A stretch of DNA of 62,229 nucleotides, the filler included, from Fonticula-like sp. SCN 57-25 (lineage: Eukaryota), in NCBI GenBank assembly GCA_001724245.1. It is 3 parts of 3 records of this genome, joined end to end, with 100 filler letters (N's around TTAATTAATTAA, not from the genome) between each part and the next. Parts side by side here need not be neighbours in the genome. Positions count along the whole stretch, not along the records: positions 1 to 20,421 come from MEDX01000090.1; 2 more parts are not named here. One strand, given 5' to 3'. Position 1 is the first letter of the stretch; every line of letters begins with the position of its first letter. Of the stretch, positions 7,807-50,115 are shown piece by piece. The position numbers were made by a program, and so were the translations under genes. The notes beneath the pieces were generated by a model. That model did no database searches and had not been told where the DNA came from. It saw only the letters and a list, made by a program, of their open reading frames with translations.

Positions 7807-8907
7807 ATGTCGCGCATGCAGATCGGCTCCCTCTTTAATGTCGCTGGCAAGGTGGCGCTCGTGACCGGCGGTAGCAGCGGCATTGGGCTGAGTGCGCGCG
7901 CTGGCCCTTGCATTTGAATGAAAAGTAGTGCTCATATGCATGCCGAATCAGTGATTGCGAGGGCGCTTGTCAACAATGGCGCCAAGGTGTACATTTCGTC
8001 GCGCAAGAAGGATGTGTGCGATAAGGGTACGCAAGAGGCGTGGCTGTGCGTTTATAGCTATTGAGTGCTTACCTTTGCAATGGCGCAGTGGCCGCCGAGC
8101 TGACAAAGGAAGGCCCCGGCAAGTGCATCAGGTGCGCTCCCAAATATTGAAACCAAAACATTGACCTTGCGTCTCCAGCATGCCCGCCAACCTTGTGTCG
8201 GATGAAGACTGCAAGCAGCTTGCCGCCAAGCTCGCTGCCCTCGAGCCCAAGCTCCACATTCTCTTCAACAACGCCGGCGCCACATGGGGCAGCAACTCTT
8301 ACGAGGAGCATCCCGAGTCCGCCTGGAACAAGATCTTTAGCCTCAATGTCTTTTCGCCGTTCCACCTGACCCGCGCGCTGCTCCCCCAGCTCGAAGCGGC
8401 CGCCACGGACGACGACTGGGCGCGCGTCATCAACATTGGCAGCGTTGCCGGCCTCACCACGTCGCGCTTTGACAACGCGCCCGCGTACGCCGCTTCAAAG
8501 TCGTCCGTGATCCACCTTTCCCGCCACCAGGCGATCCAGCTCGCCGAGCGCAGTACGCACAGCGCGCTCTTTTTTATACACACTTTTTTATGCAATTTTC
8601 TCATAAGAGCCGTATTTGCTATAGAAATCAGCGTCAACTGCATTGCGCCGGGCGTGTTCCCGAGCAGGATGGCGACCTTCCTCACTGATGAGGTCCGTAG
8701 CGAAGCGACGCTCAGCACGATCCCCATGGGTACGAGCCGGCTTTTCTCTTGAACATTAATTGAGCTAACGCTTCACAAAAAGGGCGCTTTGGCAACGAGA
8801 CGGACATGGCCGGCATCGCGCTGTTCCTCTGCTCCAAGGCGTCGGGATTCATGACGGGCGCCGTCATCCCGTACGACGGCGGGTACTCGGCCACATCCAA
8901 GCTCTGA
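7807..8907 (+). CDS. Short-chain dehydrogenase/reductase (RhlG-like) with PTS1, peroxisomal, multi-exon
   Basis: TGGSSGIG nucleotide-binding motif, NNAG, YAASK catalytic motif, VNCIAPG; C-terminus SKL*. Confidence 0.9.
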
Positions 8908-8961
8908 GGGCTATATTGAAATTATACAAAGTAATGTACAGAAATAGGGAAATTGTTGCGC

Positions 8962-11282
8962 TCATCTTGTACAGAGGGAGCAGAACCACGAGCCTTCGGG
9001 CACCTGCTCGACCGGCGGGTCCGCACACTGCTTGTGGAAACCGCGATCGCAGCCATCGCACAGCAAAATGTCCTCCTAAAAGCATAGTCAGCAAAGAGCA
9101 ACAAGAGTCCGTTCAATGGCGCACCGCATTGTGCCCGCCGCTGCAGCCAGTGCACATTGCGCAGTTGCTGCACTTCCAATCGTAGGCGGTCGCGCGCGCG
9201 ACATGGGCTTCGTCCCACTCGAGGCACGCATAGTCGTCTATCGCACGGTGAGCGAGAAGGCAAACATTAATATACAAAATCGTACATGCTTTGAGGCACT
9301 TTGCACAAGAGATATGCGCCTCTGCTGTCGCCGCTTTCAAGCACACCTGGCACGTCTTCTTGCGACCGCGCTTGGCGGGGGACCGCAGCGGCGTCGCGCT
9401 CACCGGCGCATCCGCAAGAGGCAGCTGCGGCGGCGCCTCCACCTCTGGTGCAGCCTGCTTCTTCCTCGGCCGCTTTGGGCTCGGCGCCTCGGCTGGCGCT
9501 GCTGACGCTTTTGTCTTTGCCGATGACCGACGCGGCGCCTTTTCCGAGGTAGACGCCTTCTCCGAAGCAGACGCCTTTTCCGTCGCCTTTACCGACGCTG
9601 GCGCCTTTCCCGATGACCGACGCGGTGTCTTCTCCGACGCCTTTTCCGACGCCTTTTCCGACGCCTTTTCCGATGTCGGGGTCTTTTCCACCAGAGGCGC
9701 GGCGGCCTTTTGGCGACCTCCCCGTGCCGTCTTGCGCGCCTCTTTTTGATCGGCCGCGCTGCTTGACCCCTGGCGCGACTGTGCGCCCGCGGGCGACGGC
9801 GTCCGCGCCATGGCGGCCGCCAGGGCAAGCAGCGGCCGATTGCGCGTGGCGGACGCGGTCGCAGTCGTGGGCGTCACGATGAGCGACAGCGACGGGCGGC
9901 GCGCTGCGGGGCGTGAGCGGACCAATCAGACAAGAGAAAGAAAATGCGTACGCATGCCGGGGAGCATGGGCATTTGCCGAATGCGGTCGAGCTCGTCGTC
10001 CCAGTCCTCCTGCGTGCCGGCCGGCGGCGGGACGAGCGGCGACGATGGGATCGAGGCGACCGGCGTGCTCGGCATCGGTGTCGCCGGCGCCACGGGGGTG
10101 CGCACAGGAACGGGCGTTCCAGGCTTATCGGCGGCGGCGGCGGCGGCGGAGTAAGGCGCGCGGTTGATGGCAGGCGGGATCGTGCGGCGCGTAATGTCGG
10201 CAACGCGCGCGACGCTCTGCTGCTCATACTGGCGAACTCGGGACAAAAGGTCTTCCACCTGAGGAAGCATATTGCCGAGGCGGACAGTCGGCTCGCCCTA
10301 TTTCACATAAAATATGAGCATCCACCAAATAAGACGGCAGAGAAAACACGCACATTGGTGGCAGCCGCAATCATTTCCAGGCGGGCCTGATTGTACGCGG
10401 CGAGTTCAGACTCGAGCGAGGTGAGCGACGTAAGGTCAGCCAAATTGCCCTGAAATAGATAGTGAGCAGCAATGAAAGAAGCAAAGAAAACCCTCATACC
10501 AGTGTGGCGCTCGTGGCGAATTTTTCCGACTGGGCGAGACGAATCTCGAGGCCGAGCTTGTTGGCTGGGCTCGGATCGGGCCTCGTACCTAGCATGTGAA
10601 GATGCGATCCGCGTGAAAGTTCGTGCGGTGCCACAGCAGTATGGTAATAAGCGTTCATCTATACGTTCAGTAAGCACTTTTGAGCAGTATGGGGCAGTTG
10701 CGCACCGCACGAAGCGCCTGCGCAGCAGCCCGCGCATGGTCCATGCCGCCCCGACCCGCTTCCTCCTCAAAAAGCAGCAGTTCCTCAAATAGTTCTATGG
10801 CACAGTGAGCATGCTCGTCATCCTTGAAATAGGCTACTGTACCTAAATTGATAGGGATATGCACCCTTATAAGCGACTTTGGCTGCGTCGCGAAAACCAT
10901 GTACAATGCGAAAATTGCGCCTGCCCTCGCGCGTAGCAATCGGCCGACCCAAAAGATATCTAGCACCACTCAGCATTGGCAAGTCCGCTTGAAACAGGGA
11001 CACGTACCTAGTATACAACCATACAGCTCGTGCATATAGTCTGTGCGGTCGCTCCTGTCGATGCAGGCGGTGTGGAGGAGCGAAAAGTCGAGCTCATGCC
11101 ATTTCGCCCGAAAATCGTCAAACGTGCCCGATGTCTACCAAGTTTCATCAGCCTATTTCATGACATGCGCTCGTCGTGCGTACCTTCAGATACGCCCCTA
11201 CTAACGAAGAGACGTCAGCAGCGAGCGCCGCACGCAGGCTCGTGACGCCCGGCGGTGGATGAGATGGCGGCGGCGGCGGCAT
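8962..11282 (-). CDS. SNAPC1: SNAPC1 (SNAP43)-like N-terminal domain fused to a C-terminal double PHD finger, multi-exon
   Basis: N-terminus [58 protein letters not shown] resembles SNAPC1. C-terminus [37 protein letters not shown] is DPF-type. Intron phases that I checked are compatible. Confidence 0.72.
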
Positions 11283-23018: not shown

Positions 23019-25032
23019 ATGGCGGGCTACGTAGTAACTGCGCTGTGGGACTTTGATGCGGGCGCAGACGAAGAGTTGAGTTTTCCCGGCGTACGTGCTT
23101 ATCTCCGCGCCCATATCTTGACCTGACCTCGTTATAGGGTGCTCGGCTGCGCGTTCTCGAGGATGACAACCAAGAGTGGTACCGGGCCGAGTACAATGGC
23201 TCCGTCGGCATGGTCCCCAAGAACTACTTTGAGGTGACGGGCGAATCTGATGTCGATGACGATTTTGACGACTTTGACGACTATGACGGTGATGCCGCCC
23301 CGGCGTCGCGCGGCAAGCCATCCGTGCTGATCGTCCGCGTTCTCTACGATTACGAAGTGCGTCGCCCATTTTGTCGTCGGCATCGCTGACCTTTTCCTAG
23401 GCGACGACATCGGAGGAGCTTTCGATAACTCAGGGCGAAGTGCTGCAGGTTGTCGACGATTCTGACCCCGAGTGGTACCTTGCCAAGCCGATCGTGCGGC
23501 TCGGCGAGCAGGGCTACGTACCAAAGTCGTACGTCGAGGAAGAGGCCGTCCCCGCGTCGACGCAGCCCAAGAAGCCCAAGAAGGAAAAAAAGGACAAGGT
23601 GATCGACCCGCTCAAGGAGGAAGAAAAGCGCCGGCGGGCAGAGGAGAAGCAAAAGAAGCGCGAGGAGGACGCGAAGCGCAAGGAGGAGGAGAACAAGGAG
23701 CGCGAGAAGCGGAGGGAAGAAGAGAACAAGGAGCGTGAAAAGCGCCGCGAGGAAGAAGCCAAGGAACGCGAGAAGCGCCGAGAGGAAGAGGCCAAGGAGC
23801 GCGAGCGCCGCAAGGAAGAGGACATGAAGCGCCGCGAGGAGGACCAAAAGGAGCGCGAGCGCCGCCGCGAGGAGGAGCGCAAGTTCCGCGAAGAATCGGA
23901 GCGCATCGAAGCCGAACGCCTCGCTGCCGAGCGCCTCGCCTTTCAGAAAAAGATGTCTGCGCGCGTTGCCCGTACGATCAACAACGCACGCGTCACGTCG
24001 TGGGAGAAGCGCGGCGGATTTAGCGGCGGCTACTTTTTCATCATCGACGTCAACGCGACGGTCGGCAACTACATCATCGCGCGGTCGTACCAAGAGTTTT
24101 ACGACTTTCAGATCCAGCTGCTCGAGACGTTCCCTACCGAGGCCGGCGAGGGCAGCAACGGCGCCGCGCGCACCATCCCCTACCTGCCTGGGCAAAAGCT
24201 CATTGTCAACGAGGCTGTCACAAAGCAGCGCAAGGTCGACCTCGACCTGTACTGCCAGCAGCTCGCCAAGATGCCCGAGCACATCATGTCGTCGTTTATC
24301 GTGACAGACTTTTTCGGGCAGCGGCAGTCGGACGAGCTCGCGTACGGCGCGGCGGGGTCGTCAGGGTCAGCGGGGTCGGGCGAATCGGCCTCGGCGGCGC
24401 CGCTCAACCCGGCGCCAGTGAGGACGGCGCCCGCAAGGCGGCCCGTGCCGAGCATACCGGGCGACCGCAGCTCGGTCGTGCGCTCGGCGGCGGCAGGCGA
24501 AGACAGGGCGGCGGTGCAGCCGCCGTGGGCGCGCGGGCCGGCGACGACGACAGCGACCTCGCAGCCGGCGAGGAGGCCGCCGCCGCCGGGGGACAGTGGC
24601 GCTGCTCCTGCTCGCCCGCGGCCGGCGCCCGGGGCGACTTCCGCTGCCCGCCCGAGGCCGCCGCCGTCGATTGCCGCACAGGGTGGGGCGCCCGCCGCTT
24701 CCGCGCCGCGCCAGCAGCGCCCACCGCCCGCCGCAGCGCGCCCGAGGCCCGGGCCGTCCGCCGCTCCGCCGTCCGCCTCTACCTCTGCCGATGGCACGCC
24801 AAAGATCAAGGTCAAGGCGTACTACAAGGAAGAGGTCGTGTGCACGCTCGTTCCGCAGACGGTGCGCTTTACTGAGCTGCGCTCGCGGCTGTTTGCAAAG
24901 CTGGGGACGGCGCCAAAGCCGCTCCAGTACAAGGACGAGGACGGCGACATGGTCACGCTTCACAACGACGAGGATCTTGCGCTCGCGCTCGAGGCCAACC
25001 CGGCGCGGCTCGTCGTGTGGGTGTCGCTCTAG
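23019..25032 (+). CDS. BEM1: Bem1/Scd2/BemA-like polarity scaffold: SH3-SH3-(charged helix)-PX-(Pro-rich)-PB1
   Basis: ALWDFDAGADEELSF..EWYRA..GMVPKNYF; VLYDYE..EWYLAKPIVRLGEQGYVPKSYV; PX segment IARSYQEFYDFQIQLLETFPTEAG..IPYLPG; PB1 segment KIKVK..LQYKDEDGDMVTL. Confidence 0.85.
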
Positions 25033-30700: not shown

Positions 30701-32548
30701 ATGGCCTCGCGGGGGGATCTGGACGGCGCGGCTGGCTTGGCGTCGCTCGCGGGCGAGCGCGTTGCGTTCCAGGAGCACACTGAGCGCTCTCTCTTTATGA
30801 GCTTAGGAGCCGGGGCGCGGTTCGGTAAGAACAAGCGCATCGCTCCCGCAGATCGCCAGCCTGCCGCTGGCGGTGCGCATGGCGCACGCCGCCCTGCCAA
30901 AGGCTCGGCCGCCGCTTCGTCGTCGGCAGCCCAGGCAGCAGCCACGTCGCTCGACTTTTTCGGTACCGGCGCTTTCAAGAGCATTGCTGCGCCTGACGCT
31001 GCGTCGCCTGCGTCGGACGACGATGAGGTCGAGGAGCCCGTTGTCAAGAAGGCGCGTCAGCATCGCCCGTCAAAGGACCACACTGACGATGAGGCCGAGA
31101 CCGTTGACGATGAGGAGGAGGAGGAGGAAGAGGACGCTCCGTTGGAGAGCGCGGCGGATCTCCCCCTGAACACGTTTGAGGACCAGCAAGTGTTCCGCAA
31201 GCGCTTCCGCATCCGCGCGACCGGCAACGACGTCCCTGCGCCCGTCGCCTCGTTCAGCTCGTTTGCCGAGCGCTACAACCTCGCCACGTTTCTTTCGCGG
31301 AACCTGTCGGATTGCGGGTACGCCATCCCGACCCCGATCCAGATGCAGGCGCTTCCCGTGATCGCCGAGGGCCGCGAACTTCTTGCTTGCGCCCCGACCG
31401 GCTCTGGTAAGACGCTGGCGTACGTGCTGCCGATCATCCACGCGCTCAAAAGCCCGTCGACCATCGGCTACCGCGCGGTTTTTGTTGTCCCGACGCGCGA
31501 ACTTGCACAGCAGATCTTTCGCGAGATCAAGCGCGTGACAGTCGGCCGCAACTTTAAGGCGTGCGTTTTGACCAAGGCGACGAGCGCCGCCAACTCGCTC
31601 AACAACAAGGCCGCCGCCAAGTTTGACATTTTGATCACGACGCCGATGCGTCTCGTTCACCTTGTCAAGGAGGACGCCGTCGACCTGAGCCACGTGCTGC
31701 ACCTTGTGCTCGACGAAGGCGACAAGCTGCTCGAGATGGGCTTTCTGGAGCAGGTCGACACGATCCTCGCTGCGTGCACGCACACGTCGCTCAACCGCCA
31801 CCTGCTGTCTGCGACGCTGTCGTCGGCGGTGGAGAGCCTAGCAAAGTCGTTCATGCGCGACCCCGTGCAGGTCGTGATTGGCGGCCGCAGCGCCGCCGCG
31901 CAGACGGTCGACCAGAAGCTGCTGTACGTCGGCAGCGAGGACGGCAAGCTGCTCGCGCTGCGCCAGCTCGTGCAGCGCGGCGTGCACCCGCCGGTGCTCG
32001 TGTTTGTGCAGTCAAAGGAGCGCGCCAAGGACCTCTTCCACGAGCTCGTCTACGACGGCATCAACGTTGACGTCATCCACGCCGAGCGCACGCAGCAGCA
32101 GCGTGACAACATCGTGGAGCAGTTCCGCGCGGGGCGCATCTGGTTCCTCATTGCGACAGACCTCATGGGCCGCGGTATGGACTTTAAGGGCGTCAACATG
32201 GTCGTCAACTATGACTTTCCGCAGACGACCGTCAGCTACATTCACCGCATTGGTCGTGCGGGTCGCGCGGGGCGCCGCGGCGAGGCGGTTACTTTTTTCA
32301 CGAATGACGACGCGCCAATGCTCAGGAGCATTGCCCACGTCATCAAGTCGGCGGGCGGCGAGGTGCCCGAGTACATGCTGCAGATGAGGAAGCGCAGCAG
32401 GAACGAGCGCAAGGAGCGCGCCAAGCACCCCATCGAGCGGAGAGACATCAACCCGATCCCGCAGTTTGACAAGCGCCAGTGGGGGCACAAGCGGCAGATG
32501 ATCGAGCAGTCGCACCAAAAGACAAACAAGAAGGACGACGAAAAGTAA
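30701..32548 (+). CDS. DDX52: DEAD-box RNA helicase ROK1/DDX52, intronless
   Basis: LGAGARF, PTPIQMQ, APTGSGKT, PTRELA, DEGD, PPVLVFVQSKERAKDLFHEL, YIHRIGRAGRAGR. Confidence 0.95.
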   Translation: MASRGDLDGAAGLASLAGERVAFQEHTERSLFMSLGAGARFGKNKRIAPADRQPAAGGAHGARRPAKGSAAASSSAAQAAATSLDFFGTGAFKSIAAPDAASPASDDDEVEEPVVKKARQHRPSKDHTDDEAETVDDEEEEEEEDAPLESAADLPLNTFEDQQVFRKRFRIRATGNDVPAPVASFSSFAERYNLATFLSRNLSDCGYAIPTPIQMQALPVIAEGRELLACAPTGSGKTLAYVLPIIHALKSPSTIGYRAVFVVPTRELAQQIFREIKRVTVGRNFKACVLTKATSAANSLNNKAAAKFDILITTPMRLVHLVKEDAVDLSHVLHLVLDEGDKLLEMGFLEQVDTILAACTHTSLNRHLLSATLSSAVESLAKSFMRDPVQVVIGGRSAAAQTVDQKLLYVGSEDGKLLALRQLVQRGVHPPVLVFVQSKERAKDLFHELVYDGINVDVIHAERTQQQRDNIVEQFRAGRIWFLIATDLMGRGMDFKGVNMVVNYDFPQTTVSYIHRIGRAGRAGRRGEAVTFFTNDDAPMLRSIAHVIKSAGGEVPEYMLQMRKRSRNERKERAKHPIERRDINPIPQFDKRQWGHKRQMIEQSHQKTNKKDDEK

Positions 32549-45752: not shown

Positions 45753-48700
45753 ATGGCTGACGACGAGAACACGGCGGCTGCCGCTGTAGAGGCAGCCGCC
45801 ACGCCTGTGGCTACCTCTCCGGATGCCGCGGTGAACGTGCACGAGCAGGAGGCTGTGGAAGCCGCTACCCCGATCGGCGAGAATGAGAATCCCACTGGTA
45901 TGCTGCCCTGCGGCCACGTTACCGTTTTGCTAAACGCGCGTAGATGCCGCCGGTGTCGAGAAGAAGAAGAAGAAGAAGAAGAAGAAGGTTGTGGAGGGCG
46001 GCGATGGCGAAGGTGCGCTAGATTCGGCCAAATGTTTCCATTGTGACTCACTCTACTGGATAGCCTCTGATGATGCCCTTGCCGGCGACGACACCATCAA
46101 GCGCAAAAAGAAGAAGAGGCGCGTGCCCGCTGATCCGGCTGCCGGTGATGACATCCCGATGACCCCGCTTTCCCCGTCTACGGAGCCCGCGACGCCCGGC
46201 TCCATCGCCGAAGACTCGCCCGCTGTCGACCACAGCGTGGTCGAGCTCGCCGATCCGGCCTCGGATGCGTCCACGCCCGCTATCGCCTCCACTGACCTGA
46301 CCCCTACTGCGACGCCCAAGGTCGCCGCGCTGAGCGATGACGAAAAGGAAAAGCCCGCGGCCGCCACGCCCGGCAAAAAGTACTCTGGCTCCGTGAGCGT
46401 CTTTCAGATGTTCCGCTTTGCGACCATGGAGGACATTCTGCTGATGATTGTTGGCATCATTGGCGCGATCGCGCACGGCGTCATTCAGCCGCTCTTTTCC
46501 GTCATTTTTGGTAATGTCATCAACTCTTTTGGCCCGAGTGCCGGCAACACGCTCGATGCTGTTGCCGAGAACGCGATCTGGTTTGTTATTCTCGGCGCTG
46601 TCGCCTTTGTCGTGAGTTACTTCCAGGTCATGACCTTTTTGACCACGTCGCACCGCCAGGGCAGCCGCATTCGCGAGGCGTACTTTCACGCTCTGCTCCG
46701 CCAGGAGATCACCTGGTATGACTCGCAGGATCAGGGCGCCATCACGTCGCGCCTTGCCTCGGACATTGACCTCATCCAGGAGGGTCTCTCTGACAAGATC
46801 ACCCTGATCGTCCAGAACTTTGCCATGTTCATTGCCGGCTTTATCGTGGCCTTTGTGTACAGCTGGAAGATGACGCTCGTCTTGCTTTCGCTGCTCCCGC
46901 TGCTGCTCGCCTGCGCCACCACGATGGGCAAGATCCTGACCACCTTTACCCAGCGCGGCCAAAAGGCGTACTCGAACGCCGGCATGGTCGCCGAGGAGAT
47001 TGTCGGCAACGTACGCACCGTGGCTGCTTTTGGCGGTCAGGAGCGCGAGATTGTGCGCTACGCCAAGGCGCTGCTGCCCGCCCTCAGGCTCGGCGAGCGC
47101 AAGGGTCTTGCGACCGGCCTCGGCATTGGCTGCACGATGCTCGTCATCTACTCGTCGTACGGCCTCGCCTTTTGGTACGGCGCCAAGCTGCTCAACGACG
47201 GCGAGTTTGGCATCGCGCCCGCGGGCGCCGGCAGCGTGCTCACCGTCTTCTTTTCGGTCATGATTGGCTCGATGGCCGTTGGCCAGGCCGCGCCGCACCT
47301 TTCGACGATCGCCAACGCGCGCGGCGCCGCCTACGAGATCTTCCGCGTCATTGACCGCACGCCCGAGATTGACAACATGGCCGACGAGGGCCGCCGCCCG
47401 GACTCGATCAAGGGCGACATTTCCTTCAAGGGCATCAAGTTCCACTACAAGACGCGCCCCGACGTGCCGATTCTGCGCGGCCTCGACCTCGACGTGAACG
47501 CCGGCTCGACCGTTGCGCTCGTCGGCGAGTCTGGCTGCGGCAAGTCGACGACCATTTCCCTGCTGGAGCGCTTCTACGACCCCGTCGAGGGCCAGGTGTT
47601 TGTCGACGGCAACGACGTGCGCGAGCTGTCGGTGCGCTGGCTGCGCGAGCACATTGGCGTCGTGTCGCAGGAGCCCGTGCTCTTTTCGACGACCGTGGCG
47701 GAGAACATTATGTTTGGCAAGCTGGGCACCTGCACGCAGGAGGAGATTGAGGCCGCGGCCAAGACGGCCAACGCGCACGAGTTTATCATGCGCCTGCCCA
47801 ACAAGTACGAGACGCTCGTTGGCGAGCGCGGCAGCCAGCTGTCGGGCGGCCAGAAGCAGCGTATCGCCATTGCCCGCGCGCTCATCAAGAACCCCAAGAT
47901 TCTGCTCCTCGACGAGGCCACGTCGGCGCTCGACAACAAGTCGGAGAAGATTGTGCAGGACGCGCTCGACAAGGCGCGCCGCGGCCGCACGACCATTGTG
48001 ATTGCGCACCGCCTGTCGACCATCCGCGACGCCGATCGCATCGTCTGCTTTGAAAAGGGCCTCATCGCCGAGTCGGGCACGCACGACGAGCTCATGGCCA
48101 TCAAGCACGGTATGTACGCTTCGATGGTCGAGCGCCAGGCGCTGCACACGGGCAAGTCGAGCAAGAAATCGATGTCGCGCATGGCGTCGCGCGCTTCGTC
48201 GGTCGCCACGCTCGACCTCGCCTCGAGCGAGTCCAAGGTGGACGTTGAGGGCGAGGACGAGCTGCTCGAGGACGACATCCCGGTGGCGGCGCCCGAGAAG
48301 GACCCGCTCGAAAAGGACGAGCTTGTCGCTGCTGAAAAGATGAACACGCGCTCGGTGCTCATGCGCGCGTACGGCATGTTTGGCGACGAGTGGTGGCTGC
48401 TGCTCGTCGGCGGCATCGGCGCCATCGCCTGCGGTGTCATCTACCCCGTCTACGCCATCATCATGTCTTCCATGCTTACGGACCTGCTCATGCTCAGCGG
48501 CCAGGCGCTCATGGACGCTGCCCAGTTCTGGGCGCTCATGTTCTTTGCGCTCGCGTGCTGCGGCTTTGTCGCGCAGCTGCTGCACCAGTGGTTCCTCATC
48601 ACGGCCGGCGAGCGCCTCACTGACCGCATCCGCAACAAGATGTTCAAGACGATCGTGCACCAGGACATGGGCTTTTTCGACCAGCAGAAGAACTCTGTCG

Positions 48701-50115
48701 GCGTGCTGGCGACCCGCCTCGCGACGGACGCGACGCAGGTGCAGGGCGCTACTTCGCAGAACCTCGGCGTGATGCTGCAGAGCGCTGGCACGCTCATCGG
48801 CGGCCTGATTGTCGCGCTCATTGCCTGCTGGCGCGTCGCGCTCGTCGTCGTCGCGTGCATCCCGCTCGCCATGGCCGGCGGCTTTTTGCGCATCCGCGCC
48901 GTGCTCGGCTTCAACCTCAAGAACAAGGCGGCCTTCGAAAAGGCGGGCCACTTTGCCGTCGAGAGCATTGGCAACGTGCGCACGGTCGTCGCGCTGAACC
49001 GCCAGGAGGTGTTTATTGAAAAGTTTAGCCTTGCGCTGAGCGCGCCCGTAAAGTCTTCGATCCGCAGCGCGCACATTTCCGGCCTTGGCTTTGGCCTCGG
49101 CGAGATGGTCGGCCTGCTCATCTTTGCGCTCGCCTTTTGGTATGGCTCGCAGACCGTGACGGACCTCTTCTGCGACTTTAACGGCATGTTCCGCGCCATC
49201 ATGGCCATCGTCTTTGGTGCCATGATCACTGGCCAGATCAACTCGACCGCCCCCGACGTCGGCAAGGCGCGCGTCGCCGCCCGCGAGATCTTTGAGCTCT
49301 TTGACCGCCCCGTGCCGATCCGCTCCGACTCTGAGGACGGCCGCAAGGTGGAAGCCGTGTCGGGCCGCATCGAGTTCCGCAACATCCACTTTAGCTACCC
49401 GTCGCGCCCGGACCTTCCGATCCTGCGCGGCCTCGACCTTGTTGTCGAGCCCGGCCAGACGGTCGCGCTCGTCGGCCAGTCGGGCTGCGGCAAGTCGACG
49501 CTCATCCAGCTGCTCGAGCGCTTCTACGACCCGCTTCGCGGCCAGGTCGTCGTCGACGGCATTGACATCCGCGACCTGAACGTGCAAAACTGGCGCTCCA
49601 AGATTGGCCTCGTGCAGCAGGAGCCGATCCTCTTTGCGTGCTCGATCGAGGACAATGTGCGCTACGGCCGCACCGACGCCACCCTCGAGGAGATCCGCGC
49701 CGCCACCGAGGACGCCAACGCGCTCCGCTTCATCGAGCGCCTCCCCGACACGTTCAACACGTTTGTCGGCGACAGGGGCACGCAGCTGTCGGGCGGCCAA
49801 AAGCAGCGCATCGCCATCGCGCGCGCCATGATCAGGAACCCCAAGATTCTGCTGCTCGACGAGGCCACCAGCGCGCTCGACTCCGAGTCGGAGCACGTCG
49901 TGCAGGAGGCGCTCGACAAGGCCGCCAAGGGGCGCACGACCATCATGATCGCGCACAGGCTGTCGACCGTCAAGAATGCTGATGTCATCGTGGTGATCGA
50001 CCAGGGTGTCGTTGTCGAAAAGGGAACGCACTCGGAGCTCCTCAAGCTCAAGAAGCACTACTACAGCCTCGTCATGCAGTCCGAGAGGTCGTCGGCAAAG
50101 CAGAGAAAAAGTTAA
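45753..50115 (+). CDS. Full-length ABCB/MDR P-glycoprotein (two small 5' exons and one large exon)
   Basis: TMD-NBD-TMD-NBD layout; GESGCGKST and GQSGCGKST; two copies of [14 protein letters not shown] and LLLDEATSALD. ATG at 45753, poly-Lys second exon. Confidence 0.96.

Follow-up and report, generated by a model that had tools for sequence, protein, structure and literature searches.

The locus and its genes

We have analyzed a 62,229 nt stretch of DNA from Fonticula-like sp. SCN 57-25 (GCA_001724245.1), referred to as the window, in which positions 1–20,421 correspond to MEDX01000090.1. Its minus strand contains a gene whose predicted product begins with a SNAPC1 (SNAP43) family domain and ends with zinc fingers of the PHD type. 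The gene model is as follows:

8962..11282, minus strand: whole gene, 10 exons, 9 introns, 625 codons and TGA, obtained by script splicing
11282-11184, minus strand: exon 1
11134-11008, minus strand: exon 2
10959-10843, minus strand: exon 3
10794-10706, minus strand: exon 4
10658-10500, minus strand: exon 5
10449-10354, minus strand: exon 6
10297-9952, minus strand: exon 7
9903-9286, minus strand: exon 8
9237-9125, minus strand: exon 9
9075-8962, minus strand: exon 10

The spliced frame has 1878 nt and 625 residues, ends with a TGA at 8962-8964 and contains no internal stops. The original prediction, made by hand splicing, had a continuous frame from the ATG at 11282 to the TGA at 8962, with upstream junctions which keep phase; script splicing reproduces both, as the 625 codons remain open throughout. 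The intron at 10298-10353 is also the same in both models. The start codon is the first ATG past an in-frame stop, which lies two codons upstream.

All nine introns have GT..AG ends, with lengths of 47–56 nt, and a CTxA[CT] branch-like motif is found in eight of them, 10–17 nt from the 3' end. A strict intron pattern appears 44 times in the window, compared with 5.3 ± 2.3 times in 100 shuffles, an 8-fold enrichment; its chance rate is 4.3e-5 per strand-base. Two introns of 48 nt, intron 3 (10795-10842) and intron 8 (9238-9285), keep the frame and contain no stop: Retaining either of them would add 16 residues.

The neighboring gene on the plus strand (8165-8907), a short-chain dehydrogenase by eye, ends 54 nt from the stop at 8962. 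The two stops are convergent, and the DNA between them has a GC of 0.33. This is a very compact genome, with a possible overlap between the 3' ends of both genes.

Several other ORFs on the plus strand have no introns. They include the following:

30701-32545, plus strand: DEAD-box helicase similar to ROK1/DDX52, 615 aa, single exon, found letter for letter in the ESM Atlas
45934-50115, plus strand: intron-free ORF, full-length ABC-B transporter by eye, 1393 aa
17479-18417, plus strand: intron-free ORF, ADP/ATP carrier by eye
23401-25032, plus strand: intron-free ORF, SH3-PX-PB1 scaffold of the Bem1 type by eye

The nearest Atlas clusters of the ROK1-like helicase are fungal, from Ascomycota and Basidiomycota. 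No Rfam RNA family is found in the window. Judging from sequence, the organism is most likely an uncultured early-diverging fungus or a close relative.

The SNAPC1 domain

The N-terminal domain has the following location:

10366..11240, minus strand: SNAPC1 (SNAP43) family domain, residues 15-225, exons 1-6

Exons 2 and 3, each taken alone, match the Pfam SNAPC1 profile (PF09808) in collinear order, exon 2 with 20.7 bits at profile positions 17-56 and exon 3 with 15.2 bits at positions 65-93. Exons 2-4 may be read through, since introns 2 and 3 are in frame, with 48 nt each. The resulting sequence, P0001, has an X at the single intron stop and matches PF09808 with 36.4 bits (cut-off 23.8, E 7.1e-9) at positions 18-102 of 191. 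We have also built a fungal SNAPC1 profile from seven proteins, each of which matches PF09808 (71–131 bits). It aligns with residues 15-225 of the spliced protein, without gaps at the exon joints, and gives 112.6 bits, which validates both the family assignment and the gene model of exons 1-6. The SNAPC1 identity proposed for the N-terminus is thus upheld by both profiles, and the presence of a SNAPC1-family domain may be considered well supported at the level of sequence.

A HMMER search with P0001 (143 residues) among 1.84 billion representatives gives 11 matches at E ≤ 0.001. One of them is the unspliced ORF from the window itself. The other ten match Pfam SNAPC1 only: They contain no further Pfam domain and no PHD. 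Those with a name come from Dimargaris, Basidiobolus, Polychytrium, Pilobolus, Acaulospora, and Backusella. A search of PDB sequences with pieces of the SNAPC1 domain did not find a SNAPC1 chain, only chance metallopeptidase rows. We considered a C-terminal motif common to this protein and the tails of stand-alone fungal SNAPC1 proteins, but the profile alignment does not support it.

The identity of the domain to known SNAPC1 proteins is low (29–47%). This would fit a diverged SNAPC1 paralogue which works outside SNAPc, a chromatin or Pol II factor reusing the fold, with a plain SNAPC1 encoded elsewhere and serving the snRNA genes. A SNAPC1 duplication with a new role is reported in C. elegans (bioRxiv 10.64898/2026.08.31.747621). 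Nevertheless, the domain of the window gene aligns end to end with fungal SNAPC1, and the only SNAPC1-like matches of this lineage in the 1.84 billion representatives are fragments of its own genes (P0002 and P0012, described in the next section). A paralogue outside SNAPc is unlikely. We prefer to consider the protein as a probable SNAPC1 subunit of SNAPc.

Related genes in other genomes

A metagenome scan with a two-row alignment (A2), formed by exon 2 and its nearest fragment, P0012, led to two contigs: L001 (10,687 nt) and L002 (4,013 nt). Their genes are the following:

L001, 483-2786: 7 exons, 6 GT..AG introns of 90–96 nt, one frame of 583 residues
L002, 555-2835: 580 residues, every boundary GT..AG, exon boundaries projected from L001

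In the L001 protein, a SNAPC1 domain (124 bits with the fungal profile) is followed by a linker rich in Arg and Gly, and then by one PHD of the C4HC3 type. Pfam matches in L001 and L002 are collinear for SNAPC1 when taken exon by exon (27.7, 27.3, and 15.5 bits), and reach 34.1 and 33.2 bits for PHD. The order SNAPC1, fast-evolving linker and PHD, in one spliced frame, is therefore found three times: in the window, in L001 and in L002.

The window gene and L001 have 35% identity in the SNAPC1 domain, a value at which L002 is also placed, and introns 1-3 have the same positions and phases in both. These lineages are thus related but far apart. At E ≤ 1e-5, neither L001 nor L002 has a match with any other ORF of the window. 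Synteny does not extend to the flanks, and what is conserved is thus the SNAPC1-PHD linkage alone.

Intron lengths are uniform in each genome but differ between them: 47–56 nt in the window gene (n = 9), 90–96 nt in L001 (n = 6) and 85–94 nt in L002. Base composition is also different, with a GC of 0.57–0.60 in the window region, 0.69 in L001 and 0.65 in L002.

Public protein collections contain only fragments of these SNAPC1-PHD genes, in the form of unspliced ORFs of the prokaryotic style. The spliced proteins are therefore invisible to searches at the protein level. The window gene is represented by P0002 (window positions 10667-10969, 100 aa), whose cluster has four near-identical members, including two from contigs that reach 27.9 kb. 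The L001 gene is represented by P0012 (L001 positions 697-855, 53 aa).

The zinc module

The spliced protein has 16 cysteines, 14 of which fall within its last 98 residues. They form two adjacent fingers:

9161..9352, minus strand: finger 1, with C529, C532, C544, C547, D552, C555, C573, and C576, split by intron 8 (9238-9285)
8971..9154, minus strand: finger 2, with C579, C582, C594, C597, H602, C605, C620, and C623, split by intron 9 (9076-9124)

Finger 2 has the spacing C-x2-C-x11-C-x2-C-x4-H-x2-C-x14-C-x2-C, that of a canonical C4HC3 PHD. Exon 10 matches the Pfam PHD profile (PF00628) with 43.3 bits, well above the cut-off of 24, so the C-terminal PHD originally proposed is found again, and we regard a canonical PHD finger at the C-terminus as supported by its sequence. 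Finger 2 matches 89 PDB sequences at E ≤ 0.01, including CHD4, BAZ2A, KAT6A/B, and DPF3 with E values of 1e-13 to 1e-11; its best solved relatives also include ATXR5, PHF12, AIRE, PHF21A, KDM5, and UHRF1. We take the nearest solved relatives to be readers of the unmodified H3 tail.

Finger 1 is different. Its cysteines have a cross-brace spacing similar to that of PHD fingers, with Asp552 at the usual His position (..KAYDYAC..); this replacement had been noticed before, and the spliced sequence bears it out. It has no match with the Pfam PHD profile. Searches of PDB sequences give no significant match for its N-terminal half, nor for the finger with intron 8 read through. Exon 9 alone finds the corresponding stretch of KAT6A, DPF2, and PHF10 below the threshold (E 0.19–1.6), among chance viperin rows. 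The L001 and L002 proteins have no finger 1, only a single PHD each.

The two fingers abut through a C-x2-C-x2-C-x2-C junction (C573, C576, C579, and C582). A double PHD of the DPF type had been predicted for this region, and is supported only in part. The cysteine spacing and the junction agree with such a layout; against it are the Asp instead of His in finger 1, the lack of significant matches for this finger and its absence from L001 and L002. DPF-type is a fair description of the layout, while membership in the family is at most putative, because the matches of finger 1 are either below the threshold or absent.

These features of finger 1 might suggest that the gene is real but does not read histones: The zinc module would then contact other proteins or nucleic acids or, in the window lineage, include a decaying first finger without function. 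We find this very unlikely, as finger 2 has a high score as a canonical PHD, is conserved in the window, L001 and L002, and has only chromatin proteins as its closest solved relatives. A terminal PHD which contacts histones is the reading that we favor.

The joint between SNAPC1 and PHD

The region which connects both domains contains the following features:

9952..10297, minus strand: exon 7, with a conserved-looking start, then a Pro/Ala-rich tail (its final 14 residues are not shown)
9904..9951, minus strand: intron 7, the SNAPC1/PHD joint, 48 nt, phase 1, GTACGC..CGCTCAC..GCAG
9353..9901, minus strand: basic linker, rich in Ser, Ala, Lys, and Glu, with 12-nt tandem repeats at 9629-9673 and KRPRKK / KRGRKK patches

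No Pfam family is found in exon 7 or in the linker (9353..9901). The final 120 nt of exon 7 have a GC3 of 0.92 in the frame of the model. In the linker, positions 9536-9673 contain tandem repeats of 12, 18, and 30 nt, which code for (S/T)EKA units in the window gene. The linkers of L001 and L002 are rich in Arg and Gly: The presence of a spacer and its basic character are conserved, its composition is not.

Intron 7 was the key junction of the original prediction, as a phase 1 intron at 9904-9951 whose removal joins ..MLPGM-P-RRPSLSL without a stop, and script splicing gives exactly this result. Intron 7 shares its donor (GTACGC) with intron 1 and its CGCTCAC motif with intron 8. If intron 7 is retained, a stop appears eight codons on, at 9926-9928, giving a product of 353 residues with the SNAPC1 domain only. 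With a chance rate of 4.3e-5, it is improbable that a fortuitous intron should lie exactly where it removes this stop and keeps the frame. Retention of intron 7 could yield both plain and PHD-bearing isoforms.

From the acceptor to the first ATG in frame (9812-9903), the sequence has a GC of 0.77 and a GC3 of 0.90, compared with a GC of 0.33–0.52 in candidate intergenic stretches and 0.47 in introns. For the 30 codons which precede the ATG at 9811, the excess of GC3 has P = 0.065 given the local GC and is not significant by itself. We have considered GC3 as a proof that 9812-9903 is coding, but this P value makes it suggestive only. A single RNA contig of 238 nt covers 8907-9144 and nothing else; it is unspliced through intron 9 and uninformative on splicing.

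The corresponding region of L001 and L002 may be compared directly:

Exon 5 (last SNAPC1 exon), L001 vs L002: 92.7% nt identity, 18 of 28 changes at third codon positions
Intron 5 (joint intron), L001 vs L002: 72.7% nt identity
Exon 6 (linker exon), L001 vs L002: 78.3% nt identity, 45/47/57 changes over the three codon positions, frame open

The linker exon of these two genes looks like a fast-evolving spacer, probably disordered. In L001, this exon has 247 codons and carries the PHD. It contains no in-frame ATG, which leaves no independent start of translation for the PHD, and upstream of the acceptor the frame is open for 42 nt only. In L002, exon 6 has an in-frame ATG about 45 codons in. 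The joint intron is in phase 1 in the window gene and in phase 0 in L001. We have considered that it might occupy a homologous position in both genes, which is unsupported because the phases differ.

These data bear on whether the locus contains one gene or two. Two genes in tandem would consist of a stand-alone SNAPC1 with its stop at 9926-9928 and a small PHD protein initiated at the ATG at 9811, while the intron-like sequence at 9904-9951 would be fortuitous or unused. The read-through product of 353 residues is within the size of stand-alone fungal SNAPC1 proteins (305–368 aa), the ATG at 9811 is in frame and could start a separate protein, L002 also has an in-frame ATG, and the genome leaves little space between genes, only 54 nt in the case of the stops at 8907 and 8962. 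The different phase of the joint intron, 1 in the window and 0 in L001, may also be counted here. On the other hand, 9904-9951 fits the local intron type perfectly in its donor, branch motif, length, and acceptor, the 115 nt of the supposed spacer have a coding-like GC (0.77), the PHD-bearing exon of L001 has no ATG and yet its frame is open from the acceptor, and the SNAPC1-PHD linkage has persisted down to 35% identity, unlike the flanks. Two genes are very unlikely, and a small weight is kept for them because of the P value of 0.065, the size of the 353-residue product, the ATG at 9811, that of L002 and the difference in phase. A single gene is the most likely source of the SNAPC1 and PHD parts, since L001 and L002, whose flanks are not syntenic with the window, repeat this order within one spliced frame.

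Comparison with known proteins

The closest known systems are stand-alone SNAPC1/SNAP43 proteins, such as those from Dimargaris cristalligena (RKP39077.1), Basidiobolus (ORX92161.1) and Polychytrium (XP_052962530.1), the entries from Pilobolus, Acaulospora, and Backusella, and human SNAPC1. Like the window protein, they match PF09808, with an N-terminal domain which spans about 210 residues in collinear order and precedes a low-complexity tail. Their size is 241–368 residues, and they contain no other Pfam domain. In contrast, the window protein has about 180 further residues of linker, which lead to the PHD fingers.

The zinc module is similar to those of DPF2/DPF3, PHF10, and KAT6A/KAT6B, which also have back-to-back cross-brace fingers with a W-x-C-x2-C-x2-C-x2-C junction. 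KAT6A/B and DPF3 match finger 2 with 45–47 bits. In this family finger 1 has a His, instead of the Asp found here, and an acyl-lysine (H3K14ac/cr) pocket, and the genomes related to the window have one finger only. CHD4 and BAZ2A match finger 2 with scores which are equal to those of DPF proteins or better.

A third comparison is TAF3 of TFIID, whose C-terminal PHD binds the H3 tail and reads H3K4me3 through an aromatic cage. It is also part of a core promoter-recognition complex with a histone-tail reader of its own, which follows a long disordered region. TAF3 belongs to a different complex, it has a different N-terminal fold and probably reads a different mark: Finger 2 is more similar to readers of unmodified H3.

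According to the original prediction, this architecture is not known elsewhere. We have found it in no annotated protein, and the literature on SNAPC1/SNAP43/SNAPc, PHD, fungi, PSE, and Chytridiomycota, as far as its accessible text goes, contains no description of a SNAPC1-PHD join. On the other hand, the architecture is not limited to the window, as the same order is present in at least two further environmental contigs. Among the nearest SNAPC1 homologues, none of ten contains a PHD, in a shallow survey with a 143-residue query and 11 matches. Word-indexed searches of longer proteins with exon 2 and with exon 7 give no match. A SNAPC1 alignment (A3) has no match among proteins of 645–2000 aa, a weak negative result because this range begins just above the size of the SNAPC1-PHD proteins (580–625 aa). 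In view of its sequence and of the literature text accessible to us, the SNAPC1-PHD fusion looks like a real and conserved protein design, undescribed so far.

Proposed role

In our reading, this is one gene, whose product would have a SNAPC1 N-terminal domain, a basic and disordered linker which evolves fast, and a C-terminal PHD, and would act both as part of the SNAPc core and as a nucleosome anchor. We give it a probability of about 0.7. As in other eukaryotes, the SNAPC1 domain would belong to the core of SNAPc, the PSE-binding complex which SNAPC1 forms with SNAPC3 and SNAPC4 and which snRNA transcription requires. The basic linker might be a flexible tether, with patches which are likely to serve in nuclear targeting. 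The terminal PHD would bind the H3 tail on a promoter-proximal nucleosome, adding a contact with chromatin to the recognition of the PSE. The closest functional analogy is TAF3, whose PHD attaches TFIID to nucleosomes. In the window lineage, a degenerate second finger would precede this PHD, forming a tandem similar to that of DPF proteins.

The original prediction also suggested that SNAPc might be recruited to snRNA promoters through a built-in histone reader. Such histone-guided recruitment is what we infer from the domain content. Both histone binding and its specificity are suggested by the likeness of finger 2 to its solved relatives and by the ligands of the latter. A more detailed version is tentative and rather unlikely. 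In it, the SNAPC1 PHD would read the H3 tail of a promoter-proximal nucleosome and help to place the snRNA pre-initiation complex, a solution similar to that of TAF3, and it could replace recruitment dependent on activators. The window lineage would have added its second finger afterwards, with a tandem which could sense an acylated H3 lysine, and the clade with this anchor would consist of uncultured early-diverging fungi.

SNAPc is treated as a promoter factor directed purely by DNA sequence, whose recruitment is helped by activators. The genes described here are an example of eukaryotic genes which are invisible in the large protein collections we have searched. If our reading is true, they would show how a basal factor may gain a reader domain through gene fusion. 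A SNAPc subunit with a conserved histone-tail reader would then be a natural test case for the placement of the snRNA machinery guided by chromatin.
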